Source of the DNA: a virus
Taxonomy: Duplodnaviria > Caudoviricetes
Virus record (IMG/VR): IMGVR_UViG_3300017912_001273
Location: 32,102 to 96,101 of that record
DNA length: 64,000 nucleotides
Reading direction: 5' to 3' (one strand)
Under the pieces are notes generated by a model that worked only from the letters and a program-made list of their open reading frames with translations, had not been told where the DNA came from and ran no database searches. Of the stretch, positions 1-64,000 are shown one piece after another (the stretch's first letter is position 1; every line of letters begins with the position of its first letter). A program made the position numbers and the translations under genes.

Positions 1-48
1 CATGGATAATTCTTATACCTTTTGTCTCAATAGAATTTAAAACACCGT

Positions 49-873
49 ATGAAAACAATGAATCAAATACTCTTTAGATTACTATTAGTCTCAATAGTAT
101 TTGGGTCAGTGGTAACTTGCTGTTATGGGCAGCAAAGTAAAACCCATAATATAAGAACCTATTTTCCAGTACCAGAAAACTATGAAAGAATCTTCAAAGA
201 TGCATATTCAGAGTGGTTGATTGAACATCCACTCAAGAATTTTAATCGTGTAAAGTACTTTGATGGTAGAGTCAAACATAATGATGGCATATATGCTGCT
301 GTGTTTGACTATGATATTGGTAAAAGAGACTTACATCAGTGTGCTGATGCAGCTATATATCTTAGAGCATCATACAATTATGCAAGTAAGTTTCAAGATA
401 GGTTAGGATTTCACTTTACTAACGGAGATCAAGCGTGGTATTTAGATTATCTAAATGGTGCTACGTATATACCCGTTAATAATGGTGCTGACATAGAGAT
501 AGTATGGAACAAACCACGTAAAGATAACTGCAATACGTTTAGAAAGTGGCTTGATGCCGTATGGACCTATGCTGGCACTTGGTCAGTAGAACAATATGAT
601 ACTGACCCAGTAAGTATTCTAGAAATACAACCTGGTGATGTCTTTATACAGGGAGGATTTCCTGGTCATGCAGTAACAGTAGTTGATGTAGCAGAAAATG
701 ATAGAGGTCATAGGATCTTTATGCTTGCACAAAGCTATATGCCTGCACAGGAACAACATGTATTAATAAATCCGGCCATAGGTGATGTATGGTACTCAGC
801 AGATAATATGTCATATATTTTCACACCTGAGTGGACCTTTGAGCCAACAGATTTACGTAGATTTAAAAAATAA
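49..873 (+). CDS. DUF4846-family secreted protein (possible NlpC/P60-like Cys-His hydrolase)
   Basis: N-terminal signal-like hydrophobic stretch; motifs DLHQCADAAIYLRA, GDVFIQGGFPGHAV and LAQSYMPAQ match my recollection of DUF4846. Confidence 0.75.
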   Translation: MKTMNQILFRLLLVSIVFGSVVTCCYGQQSKTHNIRTYFPVPENYERIFKDAYSEWLIEHPLKNFNRVKYFDGRVKHNDGIYAAVFDYDIGKRDLHQCADAAIYLRASYNYASKFQDRLGFHFTNGDQAWYLDYLNGATYIPVNNGADIEIVWNKPRKDNCNTFRKWLDAVWTYAGTWSVEQYDTDPVSILEIQPGDVFIQGGFPGHAVTVVDVAENDRGHRIFMLAQSYMPAQEQHVLINPAIGDVWYSADNMSYIFTPEWTFEPTDLRRFKK

Positions 874-973
874 AGACCACATATGGACCACTAACAATAC
901 CAGTAATTAACTATATACTATATCACTAGTAGATAGGCCTTGTCATAAAAGCTATGGTTGAGTAGTGGAAACC

Positions 974-3861: not shown

Positions 3862-3935
3862 GGTCCCATAGCTCAACTGGATAGAGCAACAGCCTTCTAA
3901 GCTGTAGGTTCTAGGTTCAAGTCCTAGTGGGATCA
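3862..3935 (+). tRNA. tRNA-Arg(TCT)
   Basis: Cloverleaf: acceptor ggtccca/tgggatc, anticodon arm acagc-ctTCTaa-gctgt, T arm ctagg-ttcaagt-cctag. Confidence 0.95.
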
Positions 3936-3940
3936 CATAT

Positions 3941-4025
3941 GGCCGGATGATGGAATTGGTAGACATGACAGACTTAAAATCTGTTGGGCTGTTAGCCCGT
4001 GTGGGTTCAAGTCCCACTCCGGCTA
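3941..4025 (+). tRNA. tRNA-Leu(TAA)
   Basis: Acceptor ggccgga/tccggct, anticodon arm acaga-ctTAAaa-tctgt, long variable arm gggc-tgtta-gccc. Confidence 0.95.
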
Positions 4026-4028
4026 CTT

Positions 4029-4102
4029 GCACTCTTAGCTCAGTTGGTCAGAGCAACCGGCTCATAACCGGTAGGTCACAGGTTCAAGCCCTGTAGGGTG
4101 CA
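4029..4102 (+). tRNA. tRNA with CAT anticodon, probably tRNA-Ile2 (lysidine type) rather than Met
   Basis: Acceptor gcactct/agggtgc, anticodon arm accgg-ctCATaa-ccggt; paired 1-72 and no triple G-C initiator stem. Confidence 0.85.
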
Positions 4103-4120
4103 CCTTGCAAAAGAAATAGT

Positions 4121-7265: not shown

Positions 7266-7949
7266 ATGGAAAAAATTAGTGTTGACATAGTAAAATTAAG
7301 AGAAAATTTAAATGAAAAACTAGAATCATCAGGTTGGGACAGAATGTTATCACCTTATGTAAATGGTTTGAACTTTGACTATATAGTAAATGCTTTAGTA
7401 GATAATGTTAATGCAGGTAAAAGATTTACCCCAAAATTTAAAAACATATTTAATGCATTTAAAGAGTGTCCATATGATGATCTAAAGGTTGTCATAGTAG
7501 GACAAGACCCTTATCCTCAGCTTGGAGTGGCTGATGGTATAGCATTTAGTTGCTCCAACAAAGGAAAAGCAGAAAAATCCTTACAGTATATAAATAAAGC
7601 ATTAGGTACTAATCACATAGATTTAAGATGTTGGTCTAACCAGGGTGTGCTGTTAATAAATACAGCACTAACCGTGGAAGTCAATAAGATTGGATCACAT
7701 TATCACTTATGGAAAAGTTTTGATGAATATTTATTTGAAGGATTAAATAGATGTTGTCCTGATACTATCTTTATCCTTATGGGTAAGAAAGCAGAGGAAT
7801 GGCAAACCTATTTAACAAATTGTAAAGTTCTAAAATGTGCTCACCCAGCATCAGCTGCATATAGAGGTGGAGAATGGGATTGTAATGATGTCTTTAATAA
7901 GACAAATGAAATCCTGAAAAAGCAAAATAGAACTTGTATAAATTGGTAA
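7266..7949 (+). CDS. ung: Uracil-DNA glycosylase (family 1)
   Basis: KVVIVGQDPY, QGVLLINTALTV and HPAS motifs. Confidence 0.95.
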   Translation: MEKISVDIVKLRENLNEKLESSGWDRMLSPYVNGLNFDYIVNALVDNVNAGKRFTPKFKNIFNAFKECPYDDLKVVIVGQDPYPQLGVADGIAFSCSNKGKAEKSLQYINKALGTNHIDLRCWSNQGVLLINTALTVEVNKIGSHYHLWKSFDEYLFEGLNRCCPDTIFILMGKKAEEWQTYLTNCKVLKCAHPASAAYRGGEWDCNDVFNKTNEILKKQNRTCINW

Positions 7950-11940: not shown

Positions 11941-12918
11941 ATGTTTAACACTAAAAACTTTGTATTAGAAGGTTCAGATGTTCCAAGCACGTGGGTATTT
12001 CAGTACTATTTAGAGCTACCAGAAAGACTAACAGGTCAAGACATTAAGATTAAGTCTATATTTAATCCTAATGAGAGAACACCAAGCTTTTGCATATATG
12101 TAGATAAATCTATAATGCAGTATAAGTTTAAAGATTTCTCAACTGGTAAGAATGGAAGTAAGGTTGATTTAGTTAAAGAACTATTTAATCTAGAGTTTCA
12201 TGAGGCAATGAATAAGATAGTACAAGATTATAATACGTACATCAAATCATCTGACTATAAAGATATCAAGATAAAACCAGCAGCTAGATGGAAAGTAGAT
12301 TACATCAAGGAAAGAGGTTGGACTATTGAAGATAGAAAGTTTTGGTTATCATTTAGGATAGGTAAAACTATGTTAGAAAAGTATAACGTTAGACCTATAG
12401 ATTATTATAATCTAGTTAAGGAAGAAGAAGATGGTATAAAAAAGTTAAAGATAGGTAGCAAGTGGTGCTATGGTTACTTTGATAAGGATGGTAATGTCTA
12501 TAAGATATATCAACCTAAGAGTAAAAAAAACAAATTCTTTAAAGTTAAGTCTCATCTTCAAGGGTATGATCAGCTTCAGTATAATAAACCATATCTTGTG
12601 ATATGTTCATCACTTAAAGATGCAATGTGTCTTAAAGGTATAGGTTATAATATTGAGGTAATTAGCCCTGACTCAGAAAATACTATGATTAAACCACACA
12701 TAGTAGAGTACCTGAAAAAGAAATATAAAAAGGTAATAACAGTTTTTGATAATGATGAAGCGGGTAAGCATGCAATCAAAAGATATCATGATACATATAA
12801 TATACATGGTGTATATCCTACACTAAGTAAAGATGTATCAGATGCTATGAAAGAGTATGGACTAAAAGAAGTTCATGCAATGCTTAAACCTTTATTAAAG
12901 GAAACACTAAATAAATAA
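11941..12918 (+). CDS. DNA primase (Toprim, crAss-like type)
   Basis: ERTPSF...FKDFSTG Cys-less Zn-finger-like N-terminus; Toprim ICSSLKD, FDND, KDVSD. Confidence 0.8.
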   Translation: MFNTKNFVLEGSDVPSTWVFQYYLELPERLTGQDIKIKSIFNPNERTPSFCIYVDKSIMQYKFKDFSTGKNGSKVDLVKELFNLEFHEAMNKIVQDYNTYIKSSDYKDIKIKPAARWKVDYIKERGWTIEDRKFWLSFRIGKTMLEKYNVRPIDYYNLVKEEEDGIKKLKIGSKWCYGYFDKDGNVYKIYQPKSKKNKFFKVKSHLQGYDQLQYNKPYLVICSSLKDAMCLKGIGYNIEVISPDSENTMIKPHIVEYLKKKYKKVITVFDNDEAGKHAIKRYHDTYNIHGVYPTLSKDVSDAMKEYGLKEVHAMLKPLLKETLNK

Positions 12919-13312: not shown

Positions 13313-13607
13313 AAGAAAAATAATTACAGCTGAAGAGTTTTTTAGACTCAAAGAAATGTTTATGGGTGCTGAAGAAGATCAGGCTATAGCAGTACAAGTA
13401 TATAAAAATAGTGGGTTTGCAGATAAAGAAATTGTAGATCTACTAATGGCTAAAGCACTAGTCTTTGAACCCAGAAGAAAATTTTGTGATGCAATAAAAT
13501 TCACATTTAATCTGCCCTCTAATAAAGAAATATATGCTTATATGGAGGAACATGAAGCAGAAGAAGTATACTATAAAATTTTAAGAGATATGGGATATGA
13601 TACATAA
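13296..13607 (+). CDS. Hypothetical protein of the MoxR/vWA module
   Basis: Overlaps neighbours; shares a helical motif with ORFs 16043 and 17068. Confidence 0.65.
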   Translation: MTKNFKRKIITAEEFFRLKEMFMGAEEDQAIAVQVYKNSGFADKEIVDLLMAKALVFEPRRKFCDAIKFTFNLPSNKEIYAYMEEHEAEEVYYKILRDMGYDT

Positions 13608-14763
13608 TATTCAAGAGCTAGTTTCTAGAACTACTAAAACATTAATTTTTTCTGAGCCCTTCTACGGGCTCTTTTTAATTGGACTTAATAAAGAGTACAT
13701 TACTACTATACCTACTGCAGGTGTAAGTAAAAAAAATATAGGTGTCCAATTATCTATAAACCCTGAGTTCTTTACAGAGCTTAGTGAAGATCATAGATAT
13801 GGTCTTATAAAACATGAAATACTACATATTAGTTTTGGCCATATGGTTATGAGAGATTTATATAGTGATAAAAAGTTATTCAATATAGCTGCAGATCTAG
13901 AGATCAATCAATATATAGCAAGTCATCATTTACCTGAAGGCGGACTAATGCTTAGTAGTTTTCCTGAACTTAATCTTCCTGAGAGAGCTGGTACTAAAAC
14001 ATATTATGATTTATTACAACAGGCTAGAGAAGATGGTACATGCCCAAGTTTAGATAACTTGATGAGTCAAATGGATGGTAATTCACAATATTGTCATGCA
14101 GGATGGGATGAGATAGAAGATTTATCAGAAGCAGATAAGAAACTATTACAAAAGCAGATAGAACATCAGATTAAAGAGAGTGCTGAACAGACACAGAAGA
14201 AACATGGTACAGTGCCTGGTGAGCTAGCAGAGCTTATTAATAGACTTTTAAATGTAGAACCACCCAAGTTTGATTGGAAAGGTTACCTAAGAAGATTTGT
14301 AGGAAATTCTAGTGTAGTATATACAAAAAAGCTGAGACGTAAGTATAATAAAAGATACTCAGCAAATCCAGGACTTAAGATTAAATTTAAGAATCACATC
14401 CTTGTTGGTGTTGACACAAGTGGATCTGTAAATAGTGAAGAGCTAAAGGAATTCTTTAGTGAACTTACACACATGCATAAAACAGGACATAAGATTACAG
14501 TAGCACAGTGTGATACTGAATTGAAAAGTGTTAAAGAGTTTAATCCAAATAAAGATTGGGAAATACATGGTCGTGGTGGAACTAGTTTCCAACCAGTAAT
14601 TGATCACTATAATGAAAAGAAGGGGAGATATACTGCCCTTGTATACTTAACAGATGGTGAAGCTTATACACCAGAAGACTGCCCAAAAAATACCTTATGG
14701 GTACATAGCAGTGTTTCTAGTATAAATGATGAATTACCAGGATTAAAAATAAAATTAAATTAA
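13597..14763 (+). CDS. Metallopeptidase + vWA domain protein (DUF2201-like)
   Basis: HEILH zincin motif, NIAADLEIN, MIDAS DTSGS, GRGGTSF, LTDG. Confidence 0.9.
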   Translation: MIHNIQELVSRTTKTLIFSEPFYGLFLIGLNKEYITTIPTAGVSKKNIGVQLSINPEFFTELSEDHRYGLIKHEILHISFGHMVMRDLYSDKKLFNIAADLEINQYIASHHLPEGGLMLSSFPELNLPERAGTKTYYDLLQQAREDGTCPSLDNLMSQMDGNSQYCHAGWDEIEDLSEADKKLLQKQIEHQIKESAEQTQKKHGTVPGELAELINRLLNVEPPKFDWKGYLRRFVGNSSVVYTKKLRRKYNKRYSANPGLKIKFKNHILVGVDTSGSVNSEELKEFFSELTHMHKTGHKITVAQCDTELKSVKEFNPNKDWEIHGRGGTSFQPVIDHYNEKKGRYTALVYLTDGEAYTPEDCPKNTLWVHSSVSSINDELPGLKIKLN

Positions 14764-14769: not shown

Positions 14770-16041
14770 ATGCAAGTAAATTTAAATGTAACAGAGCTAA
14801 AAGGTTTTATTAACCACATTATTGAGAATAATAGATTTTTACAAGAGCAAGGTAAAGGACCAGTATCAGTAGAAGTTGTAGGTGAATCAGGTATTGGTAA
14901 AACATCTACAATTGTTGAGCTAGCAAAGGATAATAATTTAAACTTTGTAAAGCTTAATCTTGCTCAGATTGAGGAGATAGGTGATCTTGTAGGTTTTCCT
15001 GTTCGTCAATTCCAAATGTATAAAGAAAAGCAGGTCACTGTAAAAAACACACCTGATAATTTAGCCATGGTAACAGCAACTCAAAGAGCAGCTGGTGCTA
15101 GTCTAGCTAATCTAAACACAACAGTAACCAAAAAGGTTGGTCAGTGGGTAGATGAACTTGCCGTACAAGAGTATCTAAAGAATGGATACAAAATGACAGG
15201 TAAGAACAGAATGTCTTATTGTGCACCAGAATGGATTGCTGATAAGAAAGAAGGAGGCATTCTATTACTAGATGATTGGAACCGTGCAGATACAAGATTT
15301 ATCCAAGCAGTTATGGAATTGGTGGATAGACAGACTTATATTTCATGGACTCTTCCAAAAGATTGGCATATTATTCTTACAGCAAATCCAGATAATGGAG
15401 ACTATATGGTAAATAGTGTTGACTCAGCACAGAAGACTAGATATATTACAGCAAATCTAAAGTTTGATGTAAATGTTTGGGCACAATGGGCAGAGGGAGC
15501 TAATATAGATACAAGATGTATTAACTTCTTGTTACTACACCCAGAGCTTGTAACACAAGAAACAAATGCAAGATCCATCACAACTTTCTTTAATGCTATT
15601 TCTAGCTTTGAGAAGTTTGAAGACAGTCTCCCTATGATCCAAATGATTGGTGAAGGTAGTGTTGGTGATGCTTTTGCATCTATGTTTACTACCTTTATTA
15701 ATAATAAGTTAGACAAGCTTGTAACACCTGTAGATTTATTGACTCATGATAATGAGCAATATATTCTTAATGAGTTAAGAAGTTGCATAGGTAAAGATGA
15801 TACTTACCGTGCAGATATTGCATCTACATTGGCTACAAGGCTTGGTAACTATGCTGTAGTATACTCTAAAGAGAATACAGTAACACAGAAGATCACTGAT
15901 AGATTGAAGACTTTATGTACTGCAGATTATTTTACTAATGATCTTAAGTACTTAATTGTCAGAACAATCTTTAACGGTAATAAAAAGAAGTTTAATAAAC
16001 TAATGATGATCCCTGAGATCATTCAAATGACAATGAAGTAA
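14770..16041 (+). CDS. MoxR-like AAA+ ATPase
   Basis: Walker A GESGIGKT, GDLVGFP, Walker B LLLDDWNRAD, TANP sensor; next to the vWA gene. Confidence 0.85.
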   Translation: MQVNLNVTELKGFINHIIENNRFLQEQGKGPVSVEVVGESGIGKTSTIVELAKDNNLNFVKLNLAQIEEIGDLVGFPVRQFQMYKEKQVTVKNTPDNLAMVTATQRAAGASLANLNTTVTKKVGQWVDELAVQEYLKNGYKMTGKNRMSYCAPEWIADKKEGGILLLDDWNRADTRFIQAVMELVDRQTYISWTLPKDWHIILTANPDNGDYMVNSVDSAQKTRYITANLKFDVNVWAQWAEGANIDTRCINFLLLHPELVTQETNARSITTFFNAISSFEKFEDSLPMIQMIGEGSVGDAFASMFTTFINNKLDKLVTPVDLLTHDNEQYILNELRSCIGKDDTYRADIASTLATRLGNYAVVYSKENTVTQKITDRLKTLCTADYFTNDLKYLIVRTIFNGNKKKFNKLMMIPEIIQMTMK

Positions 16042-16042
16042 T

Positions 16043-17071
16043 ATGGCAAGTAAATCAGTATTTCAGAAATATGATACTGATGCATTGGACTACTTTGATT
16101 TGGCAAGTGACCCTATTTATGGGGTCATTGCCGGATCAAATATAGAAGATGTATTGGTTACACAAGATGAAACAACATATACTAATATCCGTGAGATAAT
16201 TGCAAAGCCAACTGAAACGGATCAGACTTTTATAAATAAGAAGAAAGCTTTTGTTCTTCCTAGTAGCCCGGTATCTAATGATAAGATAAAAGCAGCACTA
16301 AAAGAACATAAGATTACTGTAACTAATGATTATACACAGGCAGACTTAATTGTAACTCATGATGACTTTGATGACAATTTTGAGAGTAGTGAAACAATTA
16401 AGACAACTAAGATGATGTATAAACTTTGGAACTATGAAACTACTTCAGGTGATCCTAGTAGTAATTTAAGTCTCAATCAAATGATTAAGAATTGTGGGCG
16501 TCATGTGATTATAACTCCAAAGATCACAAATAACATACGTTATTATGCTTTAGATGTTGAGGATAGTCTCTATGATACTTGGGCTATTACAGGTCTTGCA
16601 CTTAATCTAGCATATGAAATATATGTTGGTAATAAAAGCACTGTATCAATTGAAACTGTACTACACACATCTGCAACAAAACAACCTCTGAATGAAGATG
16701 TTGTTGACCAGGTTATTAGAATGTGGAAAGCAGGAGGAGATGATAGAGAAGTTGCTACACAGTTATTAACTACACTTGACTATACAACAAATCATCATTT
16801 GATGTGGAAGTTGACTCAAGAGTTGGGTAGTCTACATTATAATCACCATAATAAAGATCTCAACCACTGGATGACAGCCAGCAATTGGGAGTTTTATTAT
16901 AACCAGAATGCAGAATCTATGATACAATGGATGGAGGAGAATGGATATCTAAATAAGATAAGCTTTAAATATCTAGAACCTATAGTTCGTAAGGATATAA
17001 CCATTCATAATAGAGAACTATATGTATTCAAGGTATCAGTTAAGAAAGAATATCAAAAATATTTAGTATGA
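16043..17071 (+). CDS. Hypothetical protein with a BRCT-like segment
   Basis: KAFVLPSS...KITVTNDYTQADLIV; apparent paralog of the next ORF. Confidence 0.6.
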   Translation: MASKSVFQKYDTDALDYFDLASDPIYGVIAGSNIEDVLVTQDETTYTNIREIIAKPTETDQTFINKKKAFVLPSSPVSNDKIKAALKEHKITVTNDYTQADLIVTHDDFDDNFESSETIKTTKMMYKLWNYETTSGDPSSNLSLNQMIKNCGRHVIITPKITNNIRYYALDVEDSLYDTWAITGLALNLAYEIYVGNKSTVSIETVLHTSATKQPLNEDVVDQVIRMWKAGGDDREVATQLLTTLDYTTNHHLMWKLTQELGSLHYNHHNKDLNHWMTASNWEFYYNQNAESMIQWMEENGYLNKISFKYLEPIVRKDITIHNRELYVFKVSVKKEYQKYLV

Positions 17072-18216
17072 AAAAGTATTATATAATTAAGATATCTCTT
17101 GAAGAAGATTCAATTGCTATGGATGCTAATGGCAACTATGTCATTAGCACCGGCATTGAATTAAAAGACGGAGGTATATTTATAACAAACACAAACAGTT
17201 GGAATATAACAGCTAAGGACTTAAAGTATTGTAATATAGTGGCAAGTAAAGATACTATTGATTTACAAGACAAGTCTATATATAGATTTCCAAAACTAAA
17301 TTTGCCTAGACAAAAAGTAGATTTACTTAAAGATAAGTTTAATTTAAAAGTAGTTAGAAATAAAGACAAAGCAGATTATCATGTTATATCACATAAATTT
17401 TTAGGAAGTTTATTTCAAACCAATTGGGATACTGCTATAACATTTAAAGATCTTTATAAAATATTTCAAACATGGAAAGAAGATGGCTTATTATCAGAAA
17501 CCGCTTTATTAAAATGTAGAGATATATTAGAGCTTGAAAAAGATGCAATGTTTTTAATTCATAGACCAGGTTACTATTATAGTAATAAAAGTGATGACTA
17601 TGATAAGTTTTGTAATAATGTATTAGCACCAATTTCAGATGCTAAAAAACCTTATGAAACTAATAGAATTTTCTCTGTAAATCCAACTGAAGTAAAATCA
17701 TTTCTAGATATGGTTGGCTCAAATAAATTAATAATGGATGGTCAACTACTTGATATTATTGATGAAGATCTGGCAGTAATAGATAACACTCAGTATGATC
17801 AAATAGAGAATATGATTAAGAGTAGTGACAGAGATAACAGAAATATGGCGGTAGAAATGATTGCTAATTGTAATATTAACAAATCATTTGATGTTGTTTC
17901 TGGTATTTATTGGTGGCATTATGATTGGTTTAAAGATACTGATCACTGGAATAGTGTAAATGTTAAAGCCATGCGTCAGCAATTGAAAGATTATGAAGGT
18001 GGCCATAGTAATAGTGGCATTTATTCTTACAATGCATACATAGAAAAGCTTGCAAAAGACGGAAAATTAACTAAATTTGCAGTAGATAGGACAAGGGAAA
18101 AGCTTATGAAAGATTTCTTAAGCAATTATGTTGGAAAATCTGCTCAGGTCTTTGCAGTAGATTTGGATAATTTAAAACTAAATGAAAAATTTGAAAAGCA
18201 AGTTATAGATGAATAG
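17068..18216 (+). CDS. Hypothetical protein with a BRCT-like segment
   Basis: SIYRFPKL...NLKVVRNKDKADYHV; apparent paralog of the previous ORF. Confidence 0.6.
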   Translation: MKKYYIIKISLEEDSIAMDANGNYVISTGIELKDGGIFITNTNSWNITAKDLKYCNIVASKDTIDLQDKSIYRFPKLNLPRQKVDLLKDKFNLKVVRNKDKADYHVISHKFLGSLFQTNWDTAITFKDLYKIFQTWKEDGLLSETALLKCRDILELEKDAMFLIHRPGYYYSNKSDDYDKFCNNVLAPISDAKKPYETNRIFSVNPTEVKSFLDMVGSNKLIMDGQLLDIIDEDLAVIDNTQYDQIENMIKSSDRDNRNMAVEMIANCNINKSFDVVSGIYWWHYDWFKDTDHWNSVNVKAMRQQLKDYEGGHSNSGIYSYNAYIEKLAKDGKLTKFAVDRTREKLMKDFLSNYVGKSAQVFAVDLDNLKLNEKFEKQVIDE

Positions 18217-19195
18217 AGATCATCAGAAAGAAGAAGAGTTTTATGCTGAAGCATTTAACTTCAGCTACTCTTCTCTTAATAAATTAATTTTTTCACCCTC
18301 TTTGTTTTACAAAGATTATATTTTACAGGACAGAGAACTGAAAACAGATAAGCACCTTATTGAAGGTAAACTCATACACTGTTTATTATTTGAGCCTGAG
18401 AACTTTGATAAGAAGTTTAACCTGGTCCCAGGTAAGACACCAAGTGATAATGTAAGAAAGGTCTTAAAAGACATGTCTTTACATACTGATGCTAAAACTT
18501 TAGTTGACTGTGAGGATTTTATAATTCTAGATTCTTTAAAGGATTTAAACTTATATCAATCTTTAAAAACAGATGAACAAAGAATAGCAAAAATTAGAAC
18601 TGAGGATAATGAACCTTATTGGACATTCTTATCTAATAATAATGTAGATGTAATAGATCGTGCAACTTTTGACAAATGTTCAGAAGATATTACATATCTA
18701 AAAAATAATGATGATGTAATGTCTATATTTGCAGAGACCTCAACAGACTTTGATTTGGACCCTATTACAACTTATAAAGAACATTATTTACGTTCTGAAA
18801 TGGATGGCTACCCATTTGGATTACATGGTTATGTAGATTACTTAAAGATAGATTCAGACAAGAAAATAGCAACTATATGTGATTTAAAAACAACTAGTAA
18901 AACTATTGCAGATTTTACTGAGACAGTTGACTTTTATAATTACTGGTTACAAGCTGCTATATATAGTAAACTAGTATATGATTTCCTAGGGGATGACGCT
19001 GATGAATATACAATTGAATTTAAGTTTATAGTGATAGATCAGTATAAACAAGTGTATGTCTTTGATGTATCCCAAACAACCTTATCTGCTTGGGCAGAGG
19101 GGTTAGGAGGCACTTTAAAGACTGCTAAGTATCATTTTGAGGAGAAAAACTACTCTTTGCCCTATGATTTCTTGGTAAATAAGATTAACTTATAG
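18209..19195 (+). CDS. PD-(D/E)XK exonuclease (RecE/ExoVIII, DUF3799-like)
   Basis: SYSSL, GKLIHCLL, HGYVD, ICDLKTT, YWLQAAIY. Confidence 0.85.
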   Translation: MNRDHQKEEEFYAEAFNFSYSSLNKLIFSPSLFYKDYILQDRELKTDKHLIEGKLIHCLLFEPENFDKKFNLVPGKTPSDNVRKVLKDMSLHTDAKTLVDCEDFIILDSLKDLNLYQSLKTDEQRIAKIRTEDNEPYWTFLSNNNVDVIDRATFDKCSEDITYLKNNDDVMSIFAETSTDFDLDPITTYKEHYLRSEMDGYPFGLHGYVDYLKIDSDKKIATICDLKTTSKTIADFTETVDFYNYWLQAAIYSKLVYDFLGDDADEYTIEFKFIVIDQYKQVYVFDVSQTTLSAWAEGLGGTLKTAKYHFEEKNYSLPYDFLVNKINL

Positions 19196-19196
19196 T

Positions 19197-19775
19197 ATGA
19201 AGGGTGTTTACACAGATTATTTTCAAAAGAGTAAAGTCTTTCTGTATCCTTTATTAAGGCTGCAGAAAGGCATTACCTATGTTCCTCAAGAAACTTATGT
19301 TGCTTGGGAGAATATGTATACTTTTGAAAGTACTAGATTTCTGTGTGAATATAAATACAAGAATGTAAACAAGTTTAAACTATTTAGTCATAAAACTTTA
19401 GAAAGACATCCATTGTATGAAGGCTCCGTAGAGCTAGATGATGGTAGACACTTAGTCATATTTGATTTTACACAATATAAACATGATTTTAATGCATTTG
19501 TACAAGGCAAATACTCAAAGTTTAGTTTAGATAGTAAGATCCACATAATAGACTTCTTTGGTGACAAAGGTAAGATTGCAGACTATATACAAGGTTTTCT
19601 TTCTCCTCCAGATGTGCATGAGAACTATGCAGATTTTCTTGGTGTAAGAAAAGAATTACTTGAAGAAGTATATGAAGTTTGTAGTCCGCCTGACTTAGTT
19701 AAAGAAACATTAGTTGATAATAATTCTATAATTTATCAATTATTAAAAAATGATTCCATATCTTTGGAAAAATAA
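19197..19775 (+). CDS. Hypothetical protein
   Basis: 192-aa ORF in the replication operon. Confidence 0.7.
   Translation: MKGVYTDYFQKSKVFLYPLLRLQKGITYVPQETYVAWENMYTFESTRFLCEYKYKNVNKFKLFSHKTLERHPLYEGSVELDDGRHLVIFDFTQYKHDFNAFVQGKYSKFSLDSKIHIIDFFGDKGKIADYIQGFLSPPDVHENYADFLGVRKELLEEVYEVCSPPDLVKETLVDNNSIIYQLLKNDSISLEK
19759..19766 (+). promoter_or_regulatory. Bacteroidota -7 promoter element
   Basis: TATCTTTG ~22 nt upstream of ATG 19788. Confidence 0.5.
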
Positions 19776-19787
19776 ATCAATAATTAT

Positions 19788-20204
19788 ATGGCACAAATTG
19801 GACAAAATATGTTGCTAGTTCACTCTAGCTTCAGAAACGCTAAATCTTTTACACTTATACCAGTGAGTTTAGACTCACCTTATGTTGAAGCTATGTATGA
19901 CCCTTCATCAGGGATACTAGCTGTTATTAGTAAAGTTATGAAAAAATCTTTTCATATGATGCCTAGGTTAGATGACAACGGACAACCTATGAGGCTAAAA
20001 GTTCCTAATAAACAAACCGGGAAGACTGTTAAAGAACAAAGAACTCAAGTTGAAACATTCTCAGAATTTTACATTGCTGATAAAGATGATATAGATCTTT
20101 TCATTAATATGTTTGCTGTGAATGCAGAGCAGTTTGATTGGAAACAGTACGTGGTTGATGTTGATGAAACTAAAACATCACCTATTATTATGCCAGGTCA
20201 ATAG
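19788..20204 (+). CDS. Hypothetical protein
   Basis: 138-aa ORF bounded by its own promoter-like element and terminator. Confidence 0.7.
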   Translation: MAQIGQNMLLVHSSFRNAKSFTLIPVSLDSPYVEAMYDPSSGILAVISKVMKKSFHMMPRLDDNGQPMRLKVPNKQTGKTVKEQRTQVETFSEFYIADKDDIDLFINMFAVNAEQFDWKQYVVDVDETKTSPIIMPGQ

Positions 20205-20244
20205 GATTTCCTATATCCGTCCAATGTCTCTATTGATACTGGTT

Positions 20245-20276
20245 AAAAAGGCATGCACACTGCGTGCCTTTTTTTT
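20245..20276 (+). terminator. Intrinsic (possibly bidirectional) terminator
   Basis: aaaaaggcatgca-cac-tgcgtgcctttttttt. Confidence 0.8.
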
Positions 20277-20297
20277 GTAAACTAAAAATGTAAAAAA

Positions 20298-22289
20298 ATG
20301 AAACACTGGGTAATGGACTATGAAACACTATCCAATTGTTTTGTTGGCGTCTTTGTACACTATAAGACAAATGAGAAAAAAGTTTTTGTCGTACATGAGT
20401 TACAAAATGATTTTGATAGCTTCATAGAATTTCTTAGAGAGAATGTTAATGAAAGACAGTGGCATATCTCTTACAATGGATTGGCCTTTGATTCACAGGT
20501 CACTCAATATATTATAGAAAATCACTCTCAATGGGAGGATTACTCAGCTGATCAGATTGCTAGAACTATTTTTAAGTATGCACAGAGATGTATATATAAA
20601 GCAAACAATAAAGAATGGTCAGACTATCCGCTATGGAAACTCAGTATAGGACAGATTGATATATTCAAGATGCACCACTGGGATAATCCTGCTAAGCGTT
20701 CTAGTCTTAAGTGGATACAATACAGTATGGACTGGCAGAACATATTAGATATGCCTATCCATCATGATACAGAAATTAGTAAACAAGAAGAGTTAGATAC
20801 TATTATAGAGTATTGTGTTAATGACGTTGAGTCAACAAAAGAAATCTTTAATAGATCTAAATCACAGATACAATTAAGAAAAGAACTTACTAAAGCATAT
20901 GGCATTAATTTATTTAGTGCCTCAGAACCACGGATTAGTAAAGAACTATTTGGATATTATCTATCTAAAAAGCTTAACATTCATAAAAGTGAAATCAAAA
21001 AGATGAGAACTTTTAGGGATACTATAGTTATGAAGGATATTATCCTACCATATGTAAAATTTACTTCACCAGAATTCCAAACTCTACTAGATAGATTCAA
21101 CTCTCTTGAGATAGATCCTAGTAGACTCAAAGGTAGTTTCAGGTACAGTGTAACATATAAAGATGTTAAGACTGACTTTGGCCTTGGCGGTGTTCATGGT
21201 GCTAGAAACAAAGGGGTATATGAAAGTGATGATGATATGGTTATTATATCATCAGATGTTACTAGTTTCTATCCTAATCTAGCTATTAGAAATAAATTTT
21301 CTCCTGGTCACTTTCCTAAAGAAGAGTTTTGTGATCAGTATGAATGGTTCTTTAATGAAAGAAAGAAGATTCCTAAGAGCAATCCTATGAATTATGTATA
21401 TAAGATTATACTGAATTCTACTTTTGGTCTTAGTAATGATGAGAATAGTTTCTTTTATGATCCAGAGTTATGTATGAAGATTACAGTAAATGGTCAACTT
21501 ACTTTGATGATGCTCTATGAGCAAATCATGGAAAGGATCCCTGATGCTGTAGCTTTATTACATAATACAGATGGTATTGAGACAATGATACCACGTAAAT
21601 ACTATGATGATTACATGGAAATATGCAAAGAGTGGGAAGATTTAACTAATCTTGAGCTTGAGCATGATGAATATCAAAAGCTGGTCCTTGGGGATGTCAA
21701 CAACTATATTGGTGTGAATAACTTCAAAGATGTTGATATTACCACATGGAGAGAATTAAAACAGTCACAACCACATTATGTATATAAAGTGGACAATGAT
21801 AAATTTTCATTTGCACCTGTGAAACTTAAGGGCCGTTTTGATTTTCATAATCTTCAATTACATAAAAACAAATCAAAGCTTGTTATCAAGAAAGCTATCT
21901 ATCAGTATTTTGTAAATAATGTTTTGCCAGAAGACTATCTGGATCAAAACAAAAACATACTAGATTATTGTATAGGTGGCAAATCAAAGGGTGATTGGCA
22001 ACAAGTAGCTAGATTTGTAGACACAGGTAATTATAAAGAAGAGTATCTTCAAAAGATAAATAGATACTATATATCTAATGGGGGTGTAAAAATTATCAAA
22101 GTAAACAAGAATGATGGGCGTGAGATACAGTTAGAATCAGGTAAATGGTTACAGACTGTATATAATAAAATGGATATAGCTCCTAAATGGGAGACATATG
22201 ATATTAATAAAGCCTATTATTTATCTGCTATAGAGAAGGAGATAAATGATATTCTTGCAGTTAGTAGTAATCAATTAAAATTATTTTAA
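20298..22289 (+). CDS. polB: Family B DNA polymerase
   Basis: Exo motifs DYE, YNGLAFD, YCVND; polymerase motifs DVTSFYP, KIILNSTFG, NTDG. Confidence 0.92.
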   Translation: MKHWVMDYETLSNCFVGVFVHYKTNEKKVFVVHELQNDFDSFIEFLRENVNERQWHISYNGLAFDSQVTQYIIENHSQWEDYSADQIARTIFKYAQRCIYKANNKEWSDYPLWKLSIGQIDIFKMHHWDNPAKRSSLKWIQYSMDWQNILDMPIHHDTEISKQEELDTIIEYCVNDVESTKEIFNRSKSQIQLRKELTKAYGINLFSASEPRISKELFGYYLSKKLNIHKSEIKKMRTFRDTIVMKDIILPYVKFTSPEFQTLLDRFNSLEIDPSRLKGSFRYSVTYKDVKTDFGLGGVHGARNKGVYESDDDMVIISSDVTSFYPNLAIRNKFSPGHFPKEEFCDQYEWFFNERKKIPKSNPMNYVYKIILNSTFGLSNDENSFFYDPELCMKITVNGQLTLMMLYEQIMERIPDAVALLHNTDGIETMIPRKYYDDYMEICKEWEDLTNLELEHDEYQKLVLGDVNNYIGVNNFKDVDITTWRELKQSQPHYVYKVDNDKFSFAPVKLKGRFDFHNLQLHKNKSKLVIKKAIYQYFVNNVLPEDYLDQNKNILDYCIGGKSKGDWQQVARFVDTGNYKEEYLQKINRYYISNGGVKIIKVNKNDGREIQLESGKWLQTVYNKMDIAPKWETYDINKAYYLSAIEKEINDILAVSSNQLKLF

Positions 22290-22687
22290 TGTATAGACCG
22301 TTACCACCTTCAGTTACGGTTAGACAATCAGTTATAGATGGGTTAGGCTTGTTTGCAGCAGAAAATATTGCTTCTGGTACAGACTTAGGTATAACCCATA
22401 TATATGACCAAAGATTTGAAAACCGTTATATTAGAACTCCATTGGGTGGTTTTATTAATCATAGTAAAGAGCCTAATGCAAAACTCATTGGTTGTAAAGA
22501 ATCAAGAGATATAGATTGTGGAATTCTGCATCTTCAATTGATTAAAGATGTTAAGTCTGGAGATGAGATTACCACACAGTATTCTCTCTATGAAGTAGAT
22601 GTAAAAGATATTACAGTAAACGGAGTAGAGATAATAGCAGGCACTGAGGCTGCATATGTGATAGATAAACCTATAATAAATGATTAA
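22289..22687 (+). CDS. SET-domain protein-lysine methyltransferase-like protein
   Basis: GLGLFA, GFINHSKEPN, GDEITTQY. Confidence 0.88.
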   Translation: MYRPLPPSVTVRQSVIDGLGLFAAENIASGTDLGITHIYDQRFENRYIRTPLGGFINHSKEPNAKLIGCKESRDIDCGILHLQLIKDVKSGDEITTQYSLYEVDVKDITVNGVEIIAGTEAAYVIDKPIIND

Positions 22688-23513
22688 GGTACAGAATACT
22701 AAAACCTTAGTTACAAAACCCAATAACAATAGTGCAAACTGCATAGCTCCCAATGTAATCTATGGTTGCTTTGGTGGCTGTGTAGACACTTATTGTTATA
22801 TGTCTCGTTATAATGGACGTAGAGTTTTTGTAAATAAGAATGTTGACCAGATTTTTCAGTCTGTAGTTGAATGGGAAAAAACTTTTTATAAAGAACCAGA
22901 TCAACAGGACCCTATATATACTATGGTAGATATTGCATGTAACTCAGATCTTGTTCTGATGCAGAAACATATGCCTGAACCATTAATTGATTATCTAAAA
23001 AGATATGATGATCATCCCCGTCTTAACAGTACTATGGCTACTAAGTATCCAGGATTACTAAAATTAGATGTAAATCATTTTAATAAACCACCAAGAGTAC
23101 GTGTAAGCCTTATGCCTCAAAAGTATTCAAATATACTTGAGCCTAAAATGCAAAATATATTGAGCCGTATTGAAGATGTAAACCGTCTAAAAGATTTAGG
23201 ATGGCAAGTTCATATTAATTATAGTCCACTTGTATTTCATTTTTATTGGAAAGAGCTGTATTATGAACTGTTTAGTAAGGTAAAAGAAATAGCCGGGGTA
23301 AATAAATGTGAGGTGATAGCACTCACAAATCATAAACAACAGATGGCCAGAGCATCAGAACTTGCAAAAGAACTAATGAGAAGGTCTTCTGAGATAAAAA
23401 ATGCATCAGGTGTTATGCGTTATCCTTTAGAGCATAAAACCAGACTCCTAAATGAATTCAAAGACATATACAAAGAATTTTTTCCATTAGATACTATTAG
23501 ATATATATTTTAA
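22680..23513 (+). CDS. Spore photoproduct lyase-like radical SAM protein
   Basis: GCFGGCVDTYCYM cluster motif, CNSD, ATK, RVRVSLMP, C-terminal MRY. Confidence 0.8.
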   Translation: MIKVQNTKTLVTKPNNNSANCIAPNVIYGCFGGCVDTYCYMSRYNGRRVFVNKNVDQIFQSVVEWEKTFYKEPDQQDPIYTMVDIACNSDLVLMQKHMPEPLIDYLKRYDDHPRLNSTMATKYPGLLKLDVNHFNKPPRVRVSLMPQKYSNILEPKMQNILSRIEDVNRLKDLGWQVHINYSPLVFHFYWKELYYELFSKVKEIAGVNKCEVIALTNHKQQMARASELAKELMRRSSEIKNASGVMRYPLEHKTRLLNEFKDIYKEFFPLDTIRYIF

Positions 23514-23537
23514 TTTGGGTGACTCAGTATTTTTTAT

Positions 23538-23545
23538 TATATTTA
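23538..23545 (+). promoter_or_regulatory. Putative promoter element (TAnnTTTA variant)
   Basis: TATATTTA ~20 nt upstream of ATG 23565. Confidence 0.4.
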
Positions 23546-23564
23546 CACTTTAAAAGTTTAAGAT

Positions 23565-24482: not shown

Positions 24483-24575
24483 TGGGCATATATCTTGTAA
24501 TATTGTTAGCCATAGTTTGTTTTTACATATGTAGTAAAAATAACCTTGATTATTAAACGGAGAGAAAAACCAACA

Positions 24576-24612
24576 TGGGTCCAAGTTTTTGCATTCTTGG
24601 GCCCGCTCTCTT
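24576..24612 (+). terminator. Hairpin, possible terminator
   Basis: tgggtccaag-tttttgcatt-cttgggcccg followed by ctctctt. Confidence 0.45.
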
Positions 24613-24643
24613 ATATATGTCCACCCTATAAAAGGAATAACAC

Positions 24644-29274: not shown

Positions 29275-29284
29275 GATTCAAATT

Positions 29285-29632: not shown

Positions 29633-29643
29633 AGTTAATTATT

Positions 29644-29841: not shown

Positions 29842-29848
29842 TGTTCTA

Positions 29849-29929: not shown

Positions 29930-29931
29930 GA

Positions 29932-30138: not shown

Positions 30139-30150
30139 GATTTCTAAATT

Positions 30151-33859: not shown

Positions 33860-33870
33860 AACCAAAATAA

Positions 33871-61301: not shown

Positions 61302-61360
61302 AGTTCAAAATTAGTTTTATTTTTTAAGTTTACAAAAGATTGAAAATAAACTCTTTAAGT

Positions 61361-64000
61361 TTATGAACCCATCTTGCCACTATAGAAAGGCACTACAAAC
61401 TTCTTTAATTTTTTTTCTTTACCTTCTCTTGCGTTATCTCCCTGATTATTACCCATTATACTAACATTAGACCCTGGATAACCTGGTATACCTCTCTGCT
61501 GCAATTCATTCTGTCCTGCTGTTGTACCAGGCATAACTTGATTACTACCCATACCCATATACATTTTTAAGAAATCTTCATCAACTTCAACATCCGGTCC
61601 TAAATTCTTTTTAAGATCAATGTAGTCATTAAGCATTTGTTGTTTACCATCTACTTGGCTTTGCTTATATAATTGTCTACCGCCTGGTGTAAATACAACA
61701 TCTCCACCAGCACTTGGATCTACATTATAATAGTCATACAAAGTATTCATGTTATATGCATTAGATGCATTTGTAATAGCAGTATTAAATAGTTCTGCAT
61801 TTTTAGCTGTCTTCCAATTGTCAAAATTATCTTTATTTTGTAATGCTACTGTTGTATCATCATATAAATCTTTAGCTCTTTTATTATTAAAAGCATCAAC
61901 CCTCATATTTAATTGAGGTTGTAATGCAGCTACCCTATTCATAGTTCTAACATTATTTTGATTTACTGTGTTTATAGCTTTAGCATTAGCATCTAAAGTT
62001 TTACCTTGTATATTACTACGTGCTATAGCCTGTGGTCCATATGCACCTAGTGCATTTGCCATAGTATTTTGTGCAGCAAGATTTGCATTTACTCTACCAG
62101 TATAATCATCTAATACATAGTCTATTTTCTGATCCTCCAGTACAGGTTGAAATGGTAGATATAAATTATCATCAATAAACCCTAAAGCATTTAGATTATT
62201 TATATCTTGTGCAAACATTTCTTTTTCTGGTAGAGGTGCTGGAGTTATTTGAGGTGGTATTATTTCTTCTGGTTCTTCTGGTATGTCAAAGAATTGCTCA
62301 TCTTCAGAACTAAAATCAACATCTAACCTAGGTGTATTGAATGTGTGTAATCCAAAGTCACCGTCAAAGCCAGATCCCTTAACAAAATTTTCATCATCAC
62401 TGTCCATAAAGTATGGAACATAAGGGATACCAAATTTTTCTGCTTCTTCTTTTCTTGTTTTTTCTGCAAGCTTTTGAAACTCTAACCACTGTGGATCACT
62501 TCTACCTGCATTATAATCAAAGCCTTCTATTTGACTTACAACATCACCCCATCTATTCATGAAGTCTGCCTTAGCCTCATCACTTTCTATTTCTGCTGAC
62601 CCAAAGCTACCTTCACCTGTAACTGCTTGATTCTCAGGTCTGTTACCACCTGATAAGATACCATATCTATATTGACCAATAGGTGATCCTTGTAATACTT
62701 GACCTTGACCCTCTATATCTTCACTATAAATAGGTACTGATCCTGTACCAGATCCTTGAGCTTCTCTTCTTTCTCCTGCTTCTACATCTTGGAATCTTGA
62801 TTGGAAAGGTTTATATGCTCTTACTCTACCATCTACAACAGATAATTCATAACCACTATTCTGTAGTTCTTCTAGTTGTCTACGTGTATCACTACCTTCT
62901 GGGTATCTACTTAAAATTTTATCTGTTTCTTTTGGTGCTTCTTTTTGAACCTCTTGATTAACTTTTTCTTCATTTTTCTGCACTACCTCAACAATTTCAT
63001 CTGATCCAGAATCTGATGCATTAGAATATCTCTCTGCAAAGACCTCATCACTAATACTTAAATCACCCACTAGAGGATTTGTTTTAGCCTCAAATATATC
63101 CCAGTCATCTATATCTTCAAATGCTTTACCATAAAGTTTAATTTCATCTGCAGAAAGTCCATCAATAAAGTCTTGATCTAGTTTTCCATCAAAGTCTCTA
63201 TGCATATTATTTCTAATTGCATAATCAACATAAGTAGCTCTATCTACAATTTGCCCATTTATGCTATATGTACTAGTTACATTACTCTGCTCTGCGTTAC
63301 CATCTTGAGCTTTCATAAGAAAGTCTTTCATCTCCAAACCATCTTTAGCCATTAAGCTTTGCATAAGTGCATCATCACCTTGTGCAAGATTAGATTGCAT
63401 TGCAGAAGTTGCTGGAGTATTCATTGTATTTTCAGCAGCCTGATTTGCTTGTTGTTCTGCTGCTACTAACATTTGTTGTAGCATTCTTAATTGATCTTGC
63501 TGATCTTGTGGTAATTGAGAAATAGTATTCTCTGCAGCTTGTCTTTCAGTTATTCCCTCAACTTGTGCTGTAAACTGCAGTGGGTCAATACCATTTTGAA
63601 CTAAGTAAGGGTGTGATACTAAAGGTACACCATCTTCAAAGTTCTTCTTTGCTTCTTGCATAAAACCTAACTTAGATAAATCTTGCATATTTTTTCTAAG
63701 CATAAGCTCAGCACTCCTTGAAGATATATCATCTGCATACTGACTATCTAATTCTGCGTAGTAATCATTCAACTGAAACTTTTTAGAAATTTGTGCAGGA
63801 GTTTTTCTTTGCCCTCCCATATCAAACTCTTTCATTTCTTCTTTTGTAAATTTAAGTTTTGGTGTATCACTATAAATAAATGATTGTTCTGGCAAAAACA
63901 TAGGCACACCACCTTGAGAATGTCTTGGTCCGTTTATATTATATAAACCAAACATACCATCATTGTTAAGATCTGTTAGTACAGTTTCTCCACCTTCTGC
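61361..64000 (-). CDS. Putative virion cargo protein, 5'-truncated by the window edge
   Basis: Frame is open to the edge (AEGGETVLTDLNNDGM...); AEGGE and GPRHSQGGV motifs recalled from crAss-like virion proteins; Q/N-rich C-terminus. Confidence 0.65.
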   Translation of the reverse strand, partial: AEGGETVLTDLNNDGMFGLYNINGPRHSQGGVPMFLPEQSFIYSDTPKLKFTKEEMKEFDMGGQRKTPAQISKKFQLNDYYAELDSQYADDISSRSAELMLRKNMQDLSKLGFMQEAKKNFEDGVPLVSHPYLVQNGIDPLQFTAQVEGITERQAAENTISQLPQDQQDQLRMLQQMLVAAEQQANQAAENTMNTPATSAMQSNLAQGDDALMQSLMAKDGLEMKDFLMKAQDGNAEQSNVTSTYSINGQIVDRATYVDYAIRNNMHRDFDGKLDQDFIDGLSADEIKLYGKAFEDIDDWDIFEAKTNPLVGDLSISDEVFAERYSNASDSGSDEIVEVVQKNEEKVNQEVQKEAPKETDKILSRYPEGSDTRRQLEELQNSGYELSVVDGRVRAYKPFQSRFQDVEAGERREAQGSGTGSVPIYSEDIEGQGQVLQGSPIGQYRYGILSGGNRPENQAVTGEGSFGSAEIESDEAKADFMNRWGDVVSQIEGFDYNAGRSDPQWLEFQKLAEKTRKEEAEKFGIPYVPYFMDSDDENFVKGSGFDGDFGLHTFNTPRLDVDFSSEDEQFFDIPEEPEEIIPPQITPAPLPEKEMFAQDINNLNALGFIDDNLYLPFQPVLEDQKIDYVLDDYTGRVNANLAAQNTMANALGAYGPQAIARSNIQGKTLDANAKAINTVNQNNVRTMNRVAALQPQLNMRVDAFNNKRAKDLYDDTTVALQNKDNFDNWKTAKNAELFNTAITNASNAYNMNTLYDYYNVDPSAGGDVVFTPGGRQLYKQSQVDGKQQMLNDYIDLKKNLGPDVEVDEDFLKMYMGMGSNQVMPGTTAGQNELQQRGIPGYPGSNVSIMGNNQGDNAREGKEKKLKKFVVPFYSGKMGS

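Follow-up and report, generated by a model that had tools for sequence, protein, structure and literature searches.

A three-base word, 5′-TCG-3′ and its reverse complement CGA, has been purged almost completely from the genome of an uncultured marine crAss-like phage and from those of most relatives examined, as a rule in a strand-polarised manner. The window analysed here, a stretch of 64,000 nucleotides with 33.1% G+C, represents bases 32102–96101 of a single 96,101-bp phage contig (IMG/VR record IMGVR_UViG_3300017912_001273). The depletion of CGA and TCG goes beyond CpG scarcity and codon usage, and CGA on the strand that is sense for the phage DNA polymerase gene (equivalent to TCG on the other strand) was shown to be 3–10 times rarer than the reverse, whichever the direction of the genes. 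An avoidance of this kind had been proposed earlier from a reading of the letters of the window (hereafter, the original prediction).

The window contained 333 CG dinucleotides (observed/expected (o/e) ratio 0.19), distributed as 204 CGT, 83 CGG, 45 CGC, and one CGA or, by the preceding base, as 144 ACG, 107 CCG, 62 GCG, and 20 TCG. A first-order Markov expectation, which includes the CpG deficit, is 106 CGA and 115 TCG for the window; the split between TCG and CGA was 20:1 (binomial p = 2e-5), no TCGA was present, and the TC dinucleotide was not depleted (o/e 1.01). Exact counting thus bore out what had been read by eye, i.e., a few hundred CG dinucleotides, nearly all of them CGT, CGG, or CGC, a single plus-strand CGA at 27770–27772, roughly 20 TCG (every position named was correct), and no TCGA. 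The bias was also found in both gene arms, as proposed, with 10 TCG in plus-strand genes, two in intergenic DNA, and eight in minus-strand genes; the single CGA lies in a minus-strand gene. Ten of the 12 TCG in the plus arm were TCGT, the other two being TCGG (2852) and TCGC (8340). The whole genome contained 496 CG, 28 TCG, four CGA, and no TCGA. CGA and TCG were its two most under-represented trinucleotides (observed/Markov 0.03 and 0.16; next lowest 0.65), and CGA counted on both strands (z = -16) was more extreme than any other 3- to 6-mer in the genome. Depletion was unequal among the CpG word pairs (ACG+CGT 535, CCG+CGG 272, GCG+CGC 153, and TCG+CGA 32); CCG/CGG was over-represented at 1.5–1.8 times the Markov expectation, and both ACGT (134) and CCGG (39) were plentiful.

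Codon usage was taken into account by 300 synonymous-codon shuffles, which preserved both proteins and codon usage, of the 97 genes of the genome; gene calls were crude, with the longest ATG-initiated open reading frames (ORFs) of at least 50 amino acids (aa) representing 94% coding DNA. Sense CGA was found 15 times as compared to 340 ± 16 expected, sense TCG 15 times as compared to 240 ± 11, and TCGA not at all as compared to 84 ± 7. The corresponding ratios were 0.04 for CGA and 0.06 for TCG, and 0.36–0.83 (1.2- to 2.7-fold low) for CGT, ACG, CGG, CCG, CGC, and GCG. Most of this deficit was out of frame (with a dot marking the codon boundary, NNC·GAN occurred 6 times vs. 294 expected and NTC·GNN 2 times vs. 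178), and only six CGA codons and two TCG codons were present in the genome; TCG and CGA were shown to have been lost essentially entirely by synonymous choices. The 5.5 kb of intergenic DNA contained 39 CG, two TCG, and no CGA. None of the three tRNA genes has a TTCGA T-loop, as the original prediction had stated; all three T-loops read GGTTCAAG, which is also found in the counterparts from two relatives (9/9 overall). Exact counts and shuffles therefore gave neither a CGA frequency similar to that of TCG nor a depletion for which CpG scarcity and codon usage together suffice, the two outcomes that the prediction had named as contrary to it.

The preferred orientation of the surviving sites follows the genome strand rather than the gene. 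In this genome, plus-strand genes contained 11 TCG and no CGA, while minus-strand genes, read on the plus strand, contained 15 TCG and four CGA (Fisher p = 5e-5 for the sense-strand table); sense CGA thus exceeds sense TCG in the minus arm, the reverse of the plus arm. Five near-complete relatives (108–116 kb; polymerase 74–79% identical) were oriented by the polymerase gene and compared with this genome; the resulting six genomes are related and not independent. Plus-strand TCG/CGA counts, with this genome first, were 28/4, 28/0, 71/18, 66/17, 50/5, and 61/10 (pooled 304/54), including one relative of 110 kb with 28 TCG and no CGA. When pooled by gene direction, plus-strand genes presented 105 TCG and 13 CGA, and minus-strand genes presented, on the plus strand, 169 TCG and 39 CGA. 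Among the 32 trinucleotide pairs, CGA/TCG was the only one with a sizeable strand ratio of the same sign in both arms of the six genomes (log2 -2.97 and -2.10); the next pair, ACG/CGT, reached -0.20 and -0.43, and all remaining pairs flipped with gene direction. Base skews likewise track transcription (A and G are enriched on the sense strand of both arms), and four-fold degenerate sites of the six genomes showed no strand-wide C-to-T or G-to-A skew.

Arm-specific synonymous shuffles placed plus-strand CGA at 0.017 of expectation in the plus arm and 0.046 in the minus arm, and plus-strand TCG at 0.18 and 0.12, respectively; the control words were alike in both arms (CGT 0.86/0.84; ACG 0.54/0.61). 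Separated by codon phase, the ratios for the plus and minus arms were 0.008 and 0.086 for C·GA, 0.037 and 0.145 for CG·A, 0.055 and 0.017 for TC·G, and 0.37 and 0.064 for T·CG. Because all four phase classes flip with the arm, the strand effect is no by-product of Arg CGT codons; these codons nonetheless account for many TCG in small plus-strand genes, and plus-strand genes contain, genome-wide, 11 sense TCG, eight of which have the T·CGN phase.

The polymerase gene identified 254 relatives in the viral collection; 80 loci, with 68 distinct polymerase genes and 1.49 Mb in total, were retained. All 80 had a CpG o/e of <0.4, and the observed/Markov ratio of CGA was <0.3 in 74 of them (range 0.03–0.52). 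The purge was strong in, e.g., G004 and G309 and weak in G313 and L060/L061. TCGA was missing from 70 loci, with 12 copies in total in 1.49 Mb, and plus-strand TCG outnumbered plus-strand CGA in 74 loci, equalled it in two, and was lower in four. These results support a purge that is old and clade-wide. In seven of the 11 longer genomes, the strand bias tracks the genome strand and not transcription; the plus-strand rule was followed by G312 (98/35). The idea that either orientation can become fixed was discarded, as no lineage with a clearly reversed bias was seen among the genomes examined.

The avoided unit is a non-palindromic 3-mer. All seven NCGA/CGAN 4-mer classes were at 0–0.26 of Markov expectation (TCGA 0, GCGA 0.03, CCGA 0.08, and ACGA 0.26), and no consensus longer than TCG could be identified around the 304 majority and 54 minority sites of the six genomes. 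Among the majority sites, 71% had T at +1 and none had A. TCGA did not occur in the six genomes (~650 kb), where at least 18 copies were expected from trinucleotide counts (P = 1e-8). TCGA was thus shown to be excluded absolutely, and TCGC and TCGG almost so, with TCGT the least excluded.

Surviving sites were not positionally conserved, as 50 TCG fell in 23 alignment columns of the 68 distinct polymerase genes; a role of surviving TCG as functional signals was ruled out on these grounds. Turnover was followed in pairwise alignments of 25 related pairs. Plus-strand CGA was shared at 34 of 38 sites at ≥97% identity, at none of nine at 90–97%, and at none of 10 at 80–90%, while plus-strand TCG was shared at 52 of 86 sites at 90–97% and at 16 of 48 at 80–90%; the shared fraction of other CpG trinucleotides was 0.46–0.77 and 0.11–0.52 in these two ranges. 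The difference over 80–97% identity (0/19 vs. 68/134; Fisher p = 6e-6) indicates that plus-strand CGA is transient and that surviving plus-strand TCG behave like ordinary CpG sites. All CpG trinucleotides turned over faster than non-CpG trinucleotides. At non-shared sites, CGA was mostly paired with TGA (9) or CAA (3) and TCG with TCA (18) or TTG (15), and transitions dominated equally for the CGT and ACG controls.

The coordinates of the surviving sites of the window and of the features referred to here are listed in Table 1. The gene order of the genome comprises a left minus arm (outside the window), a plus arm with replication genes, a short minus block, a short plus block encoding ribonucleotide reductase, and a long minus arm with late genes. 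The major capsid protein (genome 12258–13877, minus strand) matched Pfam Crass_capsid above the cut-off (E = 7e-30; the only crAss hallmark examined), and its closest match, at 30% identity, was from a Leptolyngbya phage; the polymerase is at most ~35% identical to polymerases of cultured phages. All or parts of window 15001–25000 were present in 20 runs from 10 studies labelled seawater, sponge, or marine metagenome. The capsid match, the low identity to cultured phages, and the marine runs together identify the phage as an uncultured marine crAss-like phage whose sequence is no one-off assembly product. A blastn search with the giant gene gave no match.

Table 1. Surviving CGA and TCG sites and selected features of the 64,000-nucleotide window.
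Feature	Position in window	Strand	Remarks
Sole plus-strand CGA	27770–27772	+	inside minus-strand gene 25831–29274; sense reading T·CGT
12 plus-strand TCG in plus arm	246, 2852, 8340, 14571, 15003, 16987, 18658, 20389, 22805, 24743, 24957, 25214	+	10 in plus-strand genes; 8340 and 25214 intergenic
8 plus-strand TCG inside minus-strand genes	25976, 35667, 35715, 35759, 39973, 44003, 51419, 58192	+	sense reading CGA
Plus arm, replication/early genes	49–24482	+	DUF4846, helicase, family-1 uracil-DNA glycosylase, DnaB, AAA_24, DnaG-type primase, MoxR/vWA module, PD-(D/E)XK, PolB, SET, spore-photoproduct-lyase-like, DUF932
tRNA-Arg(TCT), tRNA-Leu(TAA), tRNA-Met(CAT)	3862–4104	+	ARAGORN; 3/3 T-loops read GGTTCAAG, none with TTCGA
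Family-1 (UNG-like) uracil-DNA glycosylase	7266–7949	+	bears only on the deamination alternative
DnaG-type primase	11941–12918	+	CHC2 zinc ribbon and Toprim
DNA polymerase	20298–22289	+	used to find and orient relatives
Short minus block between two plus blocks	25831–31625	-	
Ribonucleotide reductase block	32879–35496	+	
Minus arm, late genes	35493–63955	-	includes ORFs of 1894, 4491, 1084, and 864 aa

Several side observations were made on the gene calls and composition of these genomes. ARAGORN also reported a 91-nt tRNA-His(atg) at 94–184 (plus strand), inside the DUF4846 ORF (49–873); this tRNA is over-long and lacks a TTCRA T-loop, and is probably a false call. The gene at 13597–14763 (plus strand), which adjoins a MoxR-type ATPase gene, carries the PHROG label "HNH endonuclease" (phrog_1314), as compared to Pfam matches to the DUF2201 metallopeptidase and a vWA-like domain; the PHROG label is probably wrong. 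In the six genomes, late genes had a G+C content of just 7% at four-fold sites, as compared to 12.6% for early genes; codons ending in C or G, and CGT for Arg, were used at frequencies that differed about two-fold between the two classes. The relatives also presented CpG-richer islands of small plus-strand genes (o/e 0.43–0.89), located at 23.7–24.4 kb in G006, 7.1–7.4 and 97.8–99.4 kb in G005, 16.2–17.0 kb in G007, and 36.9–38.0 kb in G008; each contained 7–9 TCG, mostly in T·CGT Arg codons, and 0–1 CGA. The genes of these islands may be recently acquired or differently expressed, obeying only the stricter half of the ban. Other words were low as well, including the palindromes GCGC (0 vs. 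~24–37 expected), CGCG (0), CATG (0.56 of expectation), and GGTACC (0.22), and the most depleted 5-mer of the genome was GGATG/CATCC (0.61). GCGC was absent from three of the six complete genomes and present in 14–40 copies in the other three, which looks like ordinary lineage-specific restriction avoidance. GAC/GTC, at 0.73 of Markov expectation, ranked third among the under-represented trinucleotide pairs; its strand ratio flips with gene direction, and its deficit looks transcription- or codon-linked.

A protein that might read the word was sought among the phage genes by comparing about 47 of the 97 ORFs with Pfam, PHROGs, or PADLOC; most proteins matched nothing. A PD-(D/E)XK-like protein encoded at 18209–19195 presented DUF3799 and PDDEXK_1 matches just above the cut-offs. 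A second candidate, a late protein of 270 aa encoded outside the window (genome 21847–22659, minus strand; L158:6847–7659), presented a PD-(D/E)XK/Cas4-like match below the cut-off (E = 6e-4). This late protein is 78–84% identical in five other complete genomes, i.e., conserved at least about as well as the polymerase, and has 3317 database homologues, some named by their source as "exonuclease V beta subunit"; its predicted fold was of low confidence (predicted local distance difference test score 50.6), and a profile search of PDB gave only chance-level matches. A UNG-type glycosylase was matched by tblastn in nine of the 11 genomes or contigs searched. DnaG-type primases start at trinucleotides, and the phage primase was considered as the reader of the word; this candidate was rejected, as a priming site would not be banned on the strand that is never primed, yet plus-strand CGA is the rarer of the two words.

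Three metagenome-assembled genomes (MAGs), labelled Pseudomonadales, Flavobacteriales, and Campylobacteraceae, contained contigs of the clade; their presence there does not prove a host. The Pseudomonadales MAG has 51% G+C and is clearly unlike the phage, and the Flavobacteriales MAG has a CpG o/e of 0.84–0.89. The marine MAG labelled Campylobacteraceae (G002; L096–L098) is truly bacterial (ValRS, UvrD, AcrB, LepA, and others) and contains two contigs of the phage clade; it has 28–30% G+C, a CpG o/e of 0.18–0.28, a CGA/Markov ratio of 0.84–0.99, and TCGA. The clade contigs are possibly in G002 only because binning uses composition. No L2 match was found in G002 or in another MAG, G003, and G002 also lacked an rpoB match; both are therefore incomplete bins. 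Homologues of the phage DUF4846 protein, at up to 50% identity, were found in 78 of 301 sampled genomes of the class of G003 (a tally that includes G102), with no match in G002 or G003 themselves; these homologues lend weak support to a Bacteroidota link. Among 26 Bacteroidia stretches, CpG o/e was 0.68–1.28 and CGA/Markov 0.72–1.41. The four cultured phages compared presented CpG o/e and CGA/Markov ratios, respectively, of 0.49 and 0.89 (Cellulophaga phage phi14:2), 0.43 and 0.77 (Leptolyngbya phage Lbo-JY46), 0.32 and 1.40 (Pelagibacter phage HTVC010P), and 0.75 and 1.12 (Prochlorococcus phage P-SSP7). The purge is thus peculiar to the phage clade among all DNA sampled, in which the MAGs represent candidate hosts only. 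The general CpG poverty of the phage may be host-like, because CpG-poor marine systems such as G002 and HTVC010P exist.

We consider it plausible, with somewhat less than even confidence, that these patterns result from selection against TCG by an activity that recognises this word on each strand separately. Such purifying selection would be exerted by a nucleic-acid-targeting activity, either a nuclease that nicks or cuts or a base modifier, and this activity could belong to the host or to the phage itself, which might use it for degrading host DNA. The word recognised would be bare 5′-TCG-3′, best as TCGV, on one strand at a time; TCGA would be the worst case, as a single site then offers the word twice, once per strand. 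The minus strand would be the more exposed one in the main clade, e.g., as the lagging-strand template if replication is, as we infer, co-directional with the late genes. The claim of the original prediction that selection acts on a very short, orientation-sensitive motif stands insofar as the avoidance is specific to CGA/TCG, biased by DNA strand, and clade-wide; it does not stand as a universal strand rule, which four of the 11 longer genomes lack, and no defence system was found among the phage proteins scanned. A further-reaching version of this reading is rather less likely: an undescribed system, of an abundant marine bacterium or of the phage itself, might read bare TCG on single-stranded DNA, with an ocean-wide clade recoded in answer and the stricter strand marking the one exposed by replication.

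Several observations weigh against selection by such an activity. No DNA methyltransferase, deaminase, or sequence-specific nuclease was found among the ~47 of 97 phage proteins scanned. The strand rule, present in seven of the longer genomes, failed in four: in the subclade G309–G311 the purge is equally strong, yet CGA outnumbers TCG on the sense strand of either arm, and the depletion in G313 was weak and symmetric (40/46). These exceptions indicate that one fixed polarity is not valid clade-wide; the sense-strand bias of G309–G311 might, speculatively, mean that transcription bubbles are the main exposure in this subclade or that its replication is arranged differently. Surviving plus-strand TCG turned over no faster than other CpG trinucleotides and may be neutral rather than mildly harmful. 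Sites in opposite orientations showed no mutual avoidance beyond ~35 bp, and distances from minority to majority sites were about those expected by chance (0 within 20 bp vs. 1.2 expected; 4 within 50 bp vs. 2.8), which leaves a model in which nearby nicks make a break unsupported. Finally, selection and site-specific hypermutation cannot be separated from sequence alone.

Site-specific hypermutation is itself unlikely in our judgement, though it deserves more attention than the remaining alternatives. TCG would lose its cytosine at a very high rate, mainly while single-stranded, either to an APOBEC-like single-strand deaminase that prefers TCG or because methylated TCG is then deaminated. Such a process would be expected to yield the depletion as well as a bias toward the lagging-strand template; the strand asymmetry of APOBEC mutagenesis at replication forks resembles the 3- to 10-fold asymmetry seen here. 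In its favour, most changes at non-shared sites are transitions, turnover is faster at CpG trinucleotides than at others, and the phage keeps a family-1 uracil-DNA glycosylase. However, the controls CGT and ACG are just as dominated by transitions, TC is not depleted, and the depletion to 0.008–0.05 of expectation, with no TCGA in ~650 kb, exceeds CpG decay as seen in the other CpG words of the same genomes (0.5–0.9). No methyltransferase or deaminase was found among the ~47 proteins scanned. The absence of a C-to-T or G-to-A skew at four-fold sites argues against the process and makes the general form of the strand-biased deamination raised by the original prediction unlikely. Sunlight, which would gradually deplete TCG in virions free in surface water, has hardly any chance of being the cause. 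T=C cyclobutane dimers in the TCG context deaminate fast, and the phage is marine and carries a spore-photoproduct-lyase-like gene; however, CCG/CGG, the other dipyrimidine CpG context, is over-represented, TC is at its expected frequency, and damage to duplex virion DNA cannot yield a strand rule. Other marine phages sampled, moreover, keep CGA/TCG (1.40 in HTVC010P and 1.12 in P-SSP7).

Ordinary Type II avoidance, in which TaqI-like (TCGA) and other systems with CG-containing sites, together with CpG scarcity and codon context, mimic the purge of a 3-mer, is decidedly improbable. TCGA is the most strictly excluded word (none in six genomes and 12 in 1.49 Mb), and other palindromes (GCGC, CATG, and GGTACC) are low and lineage-variable, as is typical of Type II avoidance in virulent phages according to the survey in PMC6286503; with TCGA set aside, however, the other CGA 4-mer classes are still at 0.03–0.26 of Markov, palindromic sites cannot give rise to strand asymmetry, ACGT and CCGG are plentiful, and codon usage is already included in the shuffles. 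Escape from a Type III- or Type ISP-like enzyme that requires two head-to-head sites would leave the remaining sites in one orientation, and agrees with a bias independent of transcription (in seven of 11 longer genomes, not in G309–G311 or G313) and with the relative that has 28 TCG and no CGA on its plus strand. The EcoP15 sites of phage T7 are also in a single orientation, as the original prediction had correctly stated, and the HinfIII site, CGAAT, contains CGA (both as described in PMC3874151). The analogy nevertheless fits poorly, and we regard this escape as very improbable: Type III sites described in PMC3874151 are 5–6 bp long, while the survivors here have no extended consensus, and the majority orientation, which should be neutral, is at 0.12–0.18 of expectation (5- to 10-fold depleted). 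In addition, most genomes retain 4–18 reverse-orientation sites (range 0–18) that would still permit cleavage, no lineage examined has the reversed orientation fixed, and avoidance of Type III sites is very rare according to the survey in PMC6286503. A cause at the level of RNA or translation, i.e., poor decoding of the CGA codon, a bias in codon pairs, or an enzyme that cleaves mRNA, is more improbable still. It would agree with the rarity of CGA and TCG codons and with the bias of G309–G311, which tracks the sense strand in both arms; however, the deficit is mostly out of frame (6 vs. 294 and 2 vs. 178), intergenic DNA and tRNA genes are also without the word, apart from the two intergenic TCG, and, in the main clade, the orientation preferred in one arm is reversed in the other, which largely refutes such a cause for this genome.

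Avoidance of motifs by phages is already well known, and the strand-polarised purge of a trinucleotide is a variant for which no description was found; a search of the literature (supplementary files lying outside its scope) identified no paper describing a CGA/TCG or CpG-context, trinucleotide-level, strand-polarised purge in phages, and the available part of PMC11282364 treats neither phages nor trinucleotides. All 36 EcoP15 sites of T7 are in one orientation (PMC3874151). As in T7, an asymmetric word survives in this phage mainly in one orientation genome-wide, independent of gene direction; unlike in T7, the word is 3 nt long, depletion extends to the surviving orientation, some reverse sites persist, and TCGA is banned too. 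Restriction-site avoidance has been described for virulent dsDNA phages (Rusinov et al. 2018, PMC6286503). The purge resembles it in the loss of a short word genome- and clade-wide by silent changes and in the absence of TCGA and GCGC; it differs in that known cases concern strand-symmetric Type II sites of 4–8 bp, whereas the word lost here is a trinucleotide, is not palindromic, follows a strand rule, and has no known cognate enzyme. Some pandoravirus genomes lack AGCT altogether, which known host–virus antagonisms do not account for, as summarised by Poirot et al. 2019 (bioRxiv 10.1101/712018). Both cases represent an unexplained, clade-specific loss of a word; AGCT is a palindromic 4-mer lost from giant viruses of amoebae, whereas the present loss concerns a bacteriophage clade and a 3-mer with strand polarity.

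Enzymes that read very short words on one strand are known. Nt.CviPII from a chlorella virus nicks ^CCD, its over-expression in E. coli requires the cognate methylase, and phage HNH nickases cut CG^GT (PMC3592412). TCG is not among the specificities described in the part of PMC3592412 available to us, and no gene of this kind was identified among the phage proteins scanned. These virus-associated enzymes nonetheless read asymmetric words of 3–4 nt on one strand, the type of reader implied here. The chlorella virus keeps the word and methylates its own DNA for protection. No restriction-type recognition site as short as a TCG target is known to us. A further parallel is offered by DarT2 of DarTG, which acts on single-stranded DNA, ADP-ribosylating thymidine within the four-base motif TNTC (PMC11543638). 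DarT2 is likewise a defence enzyme reading a very short single-strand motif, with an effect that would depend on the exposed strand; its motif and chemistry differ, nothing ties DarTG to this phage, and phage avoidance of TNTC goes unmentioned in the available part of PMC11543638.

Motif avoidance has been the route by which several phage defences and counter-defences were first noticed. The purge described here is ~20- to 50-fold on a three-base word, is found in 74 of 80 related loci of a clade with at least 254 related viral contigs from marine and sponge-associated samples, and has a strand polarity that ordinary restriction cannot produce. The pattern can be mined across viromes straight away and would be easy to test once a host is cultured. 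If the cause is mutational, it would represent a new context-specific mutator of phage DNA. If an enzyme is responsible, it would be a new kind of DNA reader that recognises a very short word strand by strand, and a possible tool, and the strand rule would provide a sequence-only readout of replication polarity in uncultured phages.

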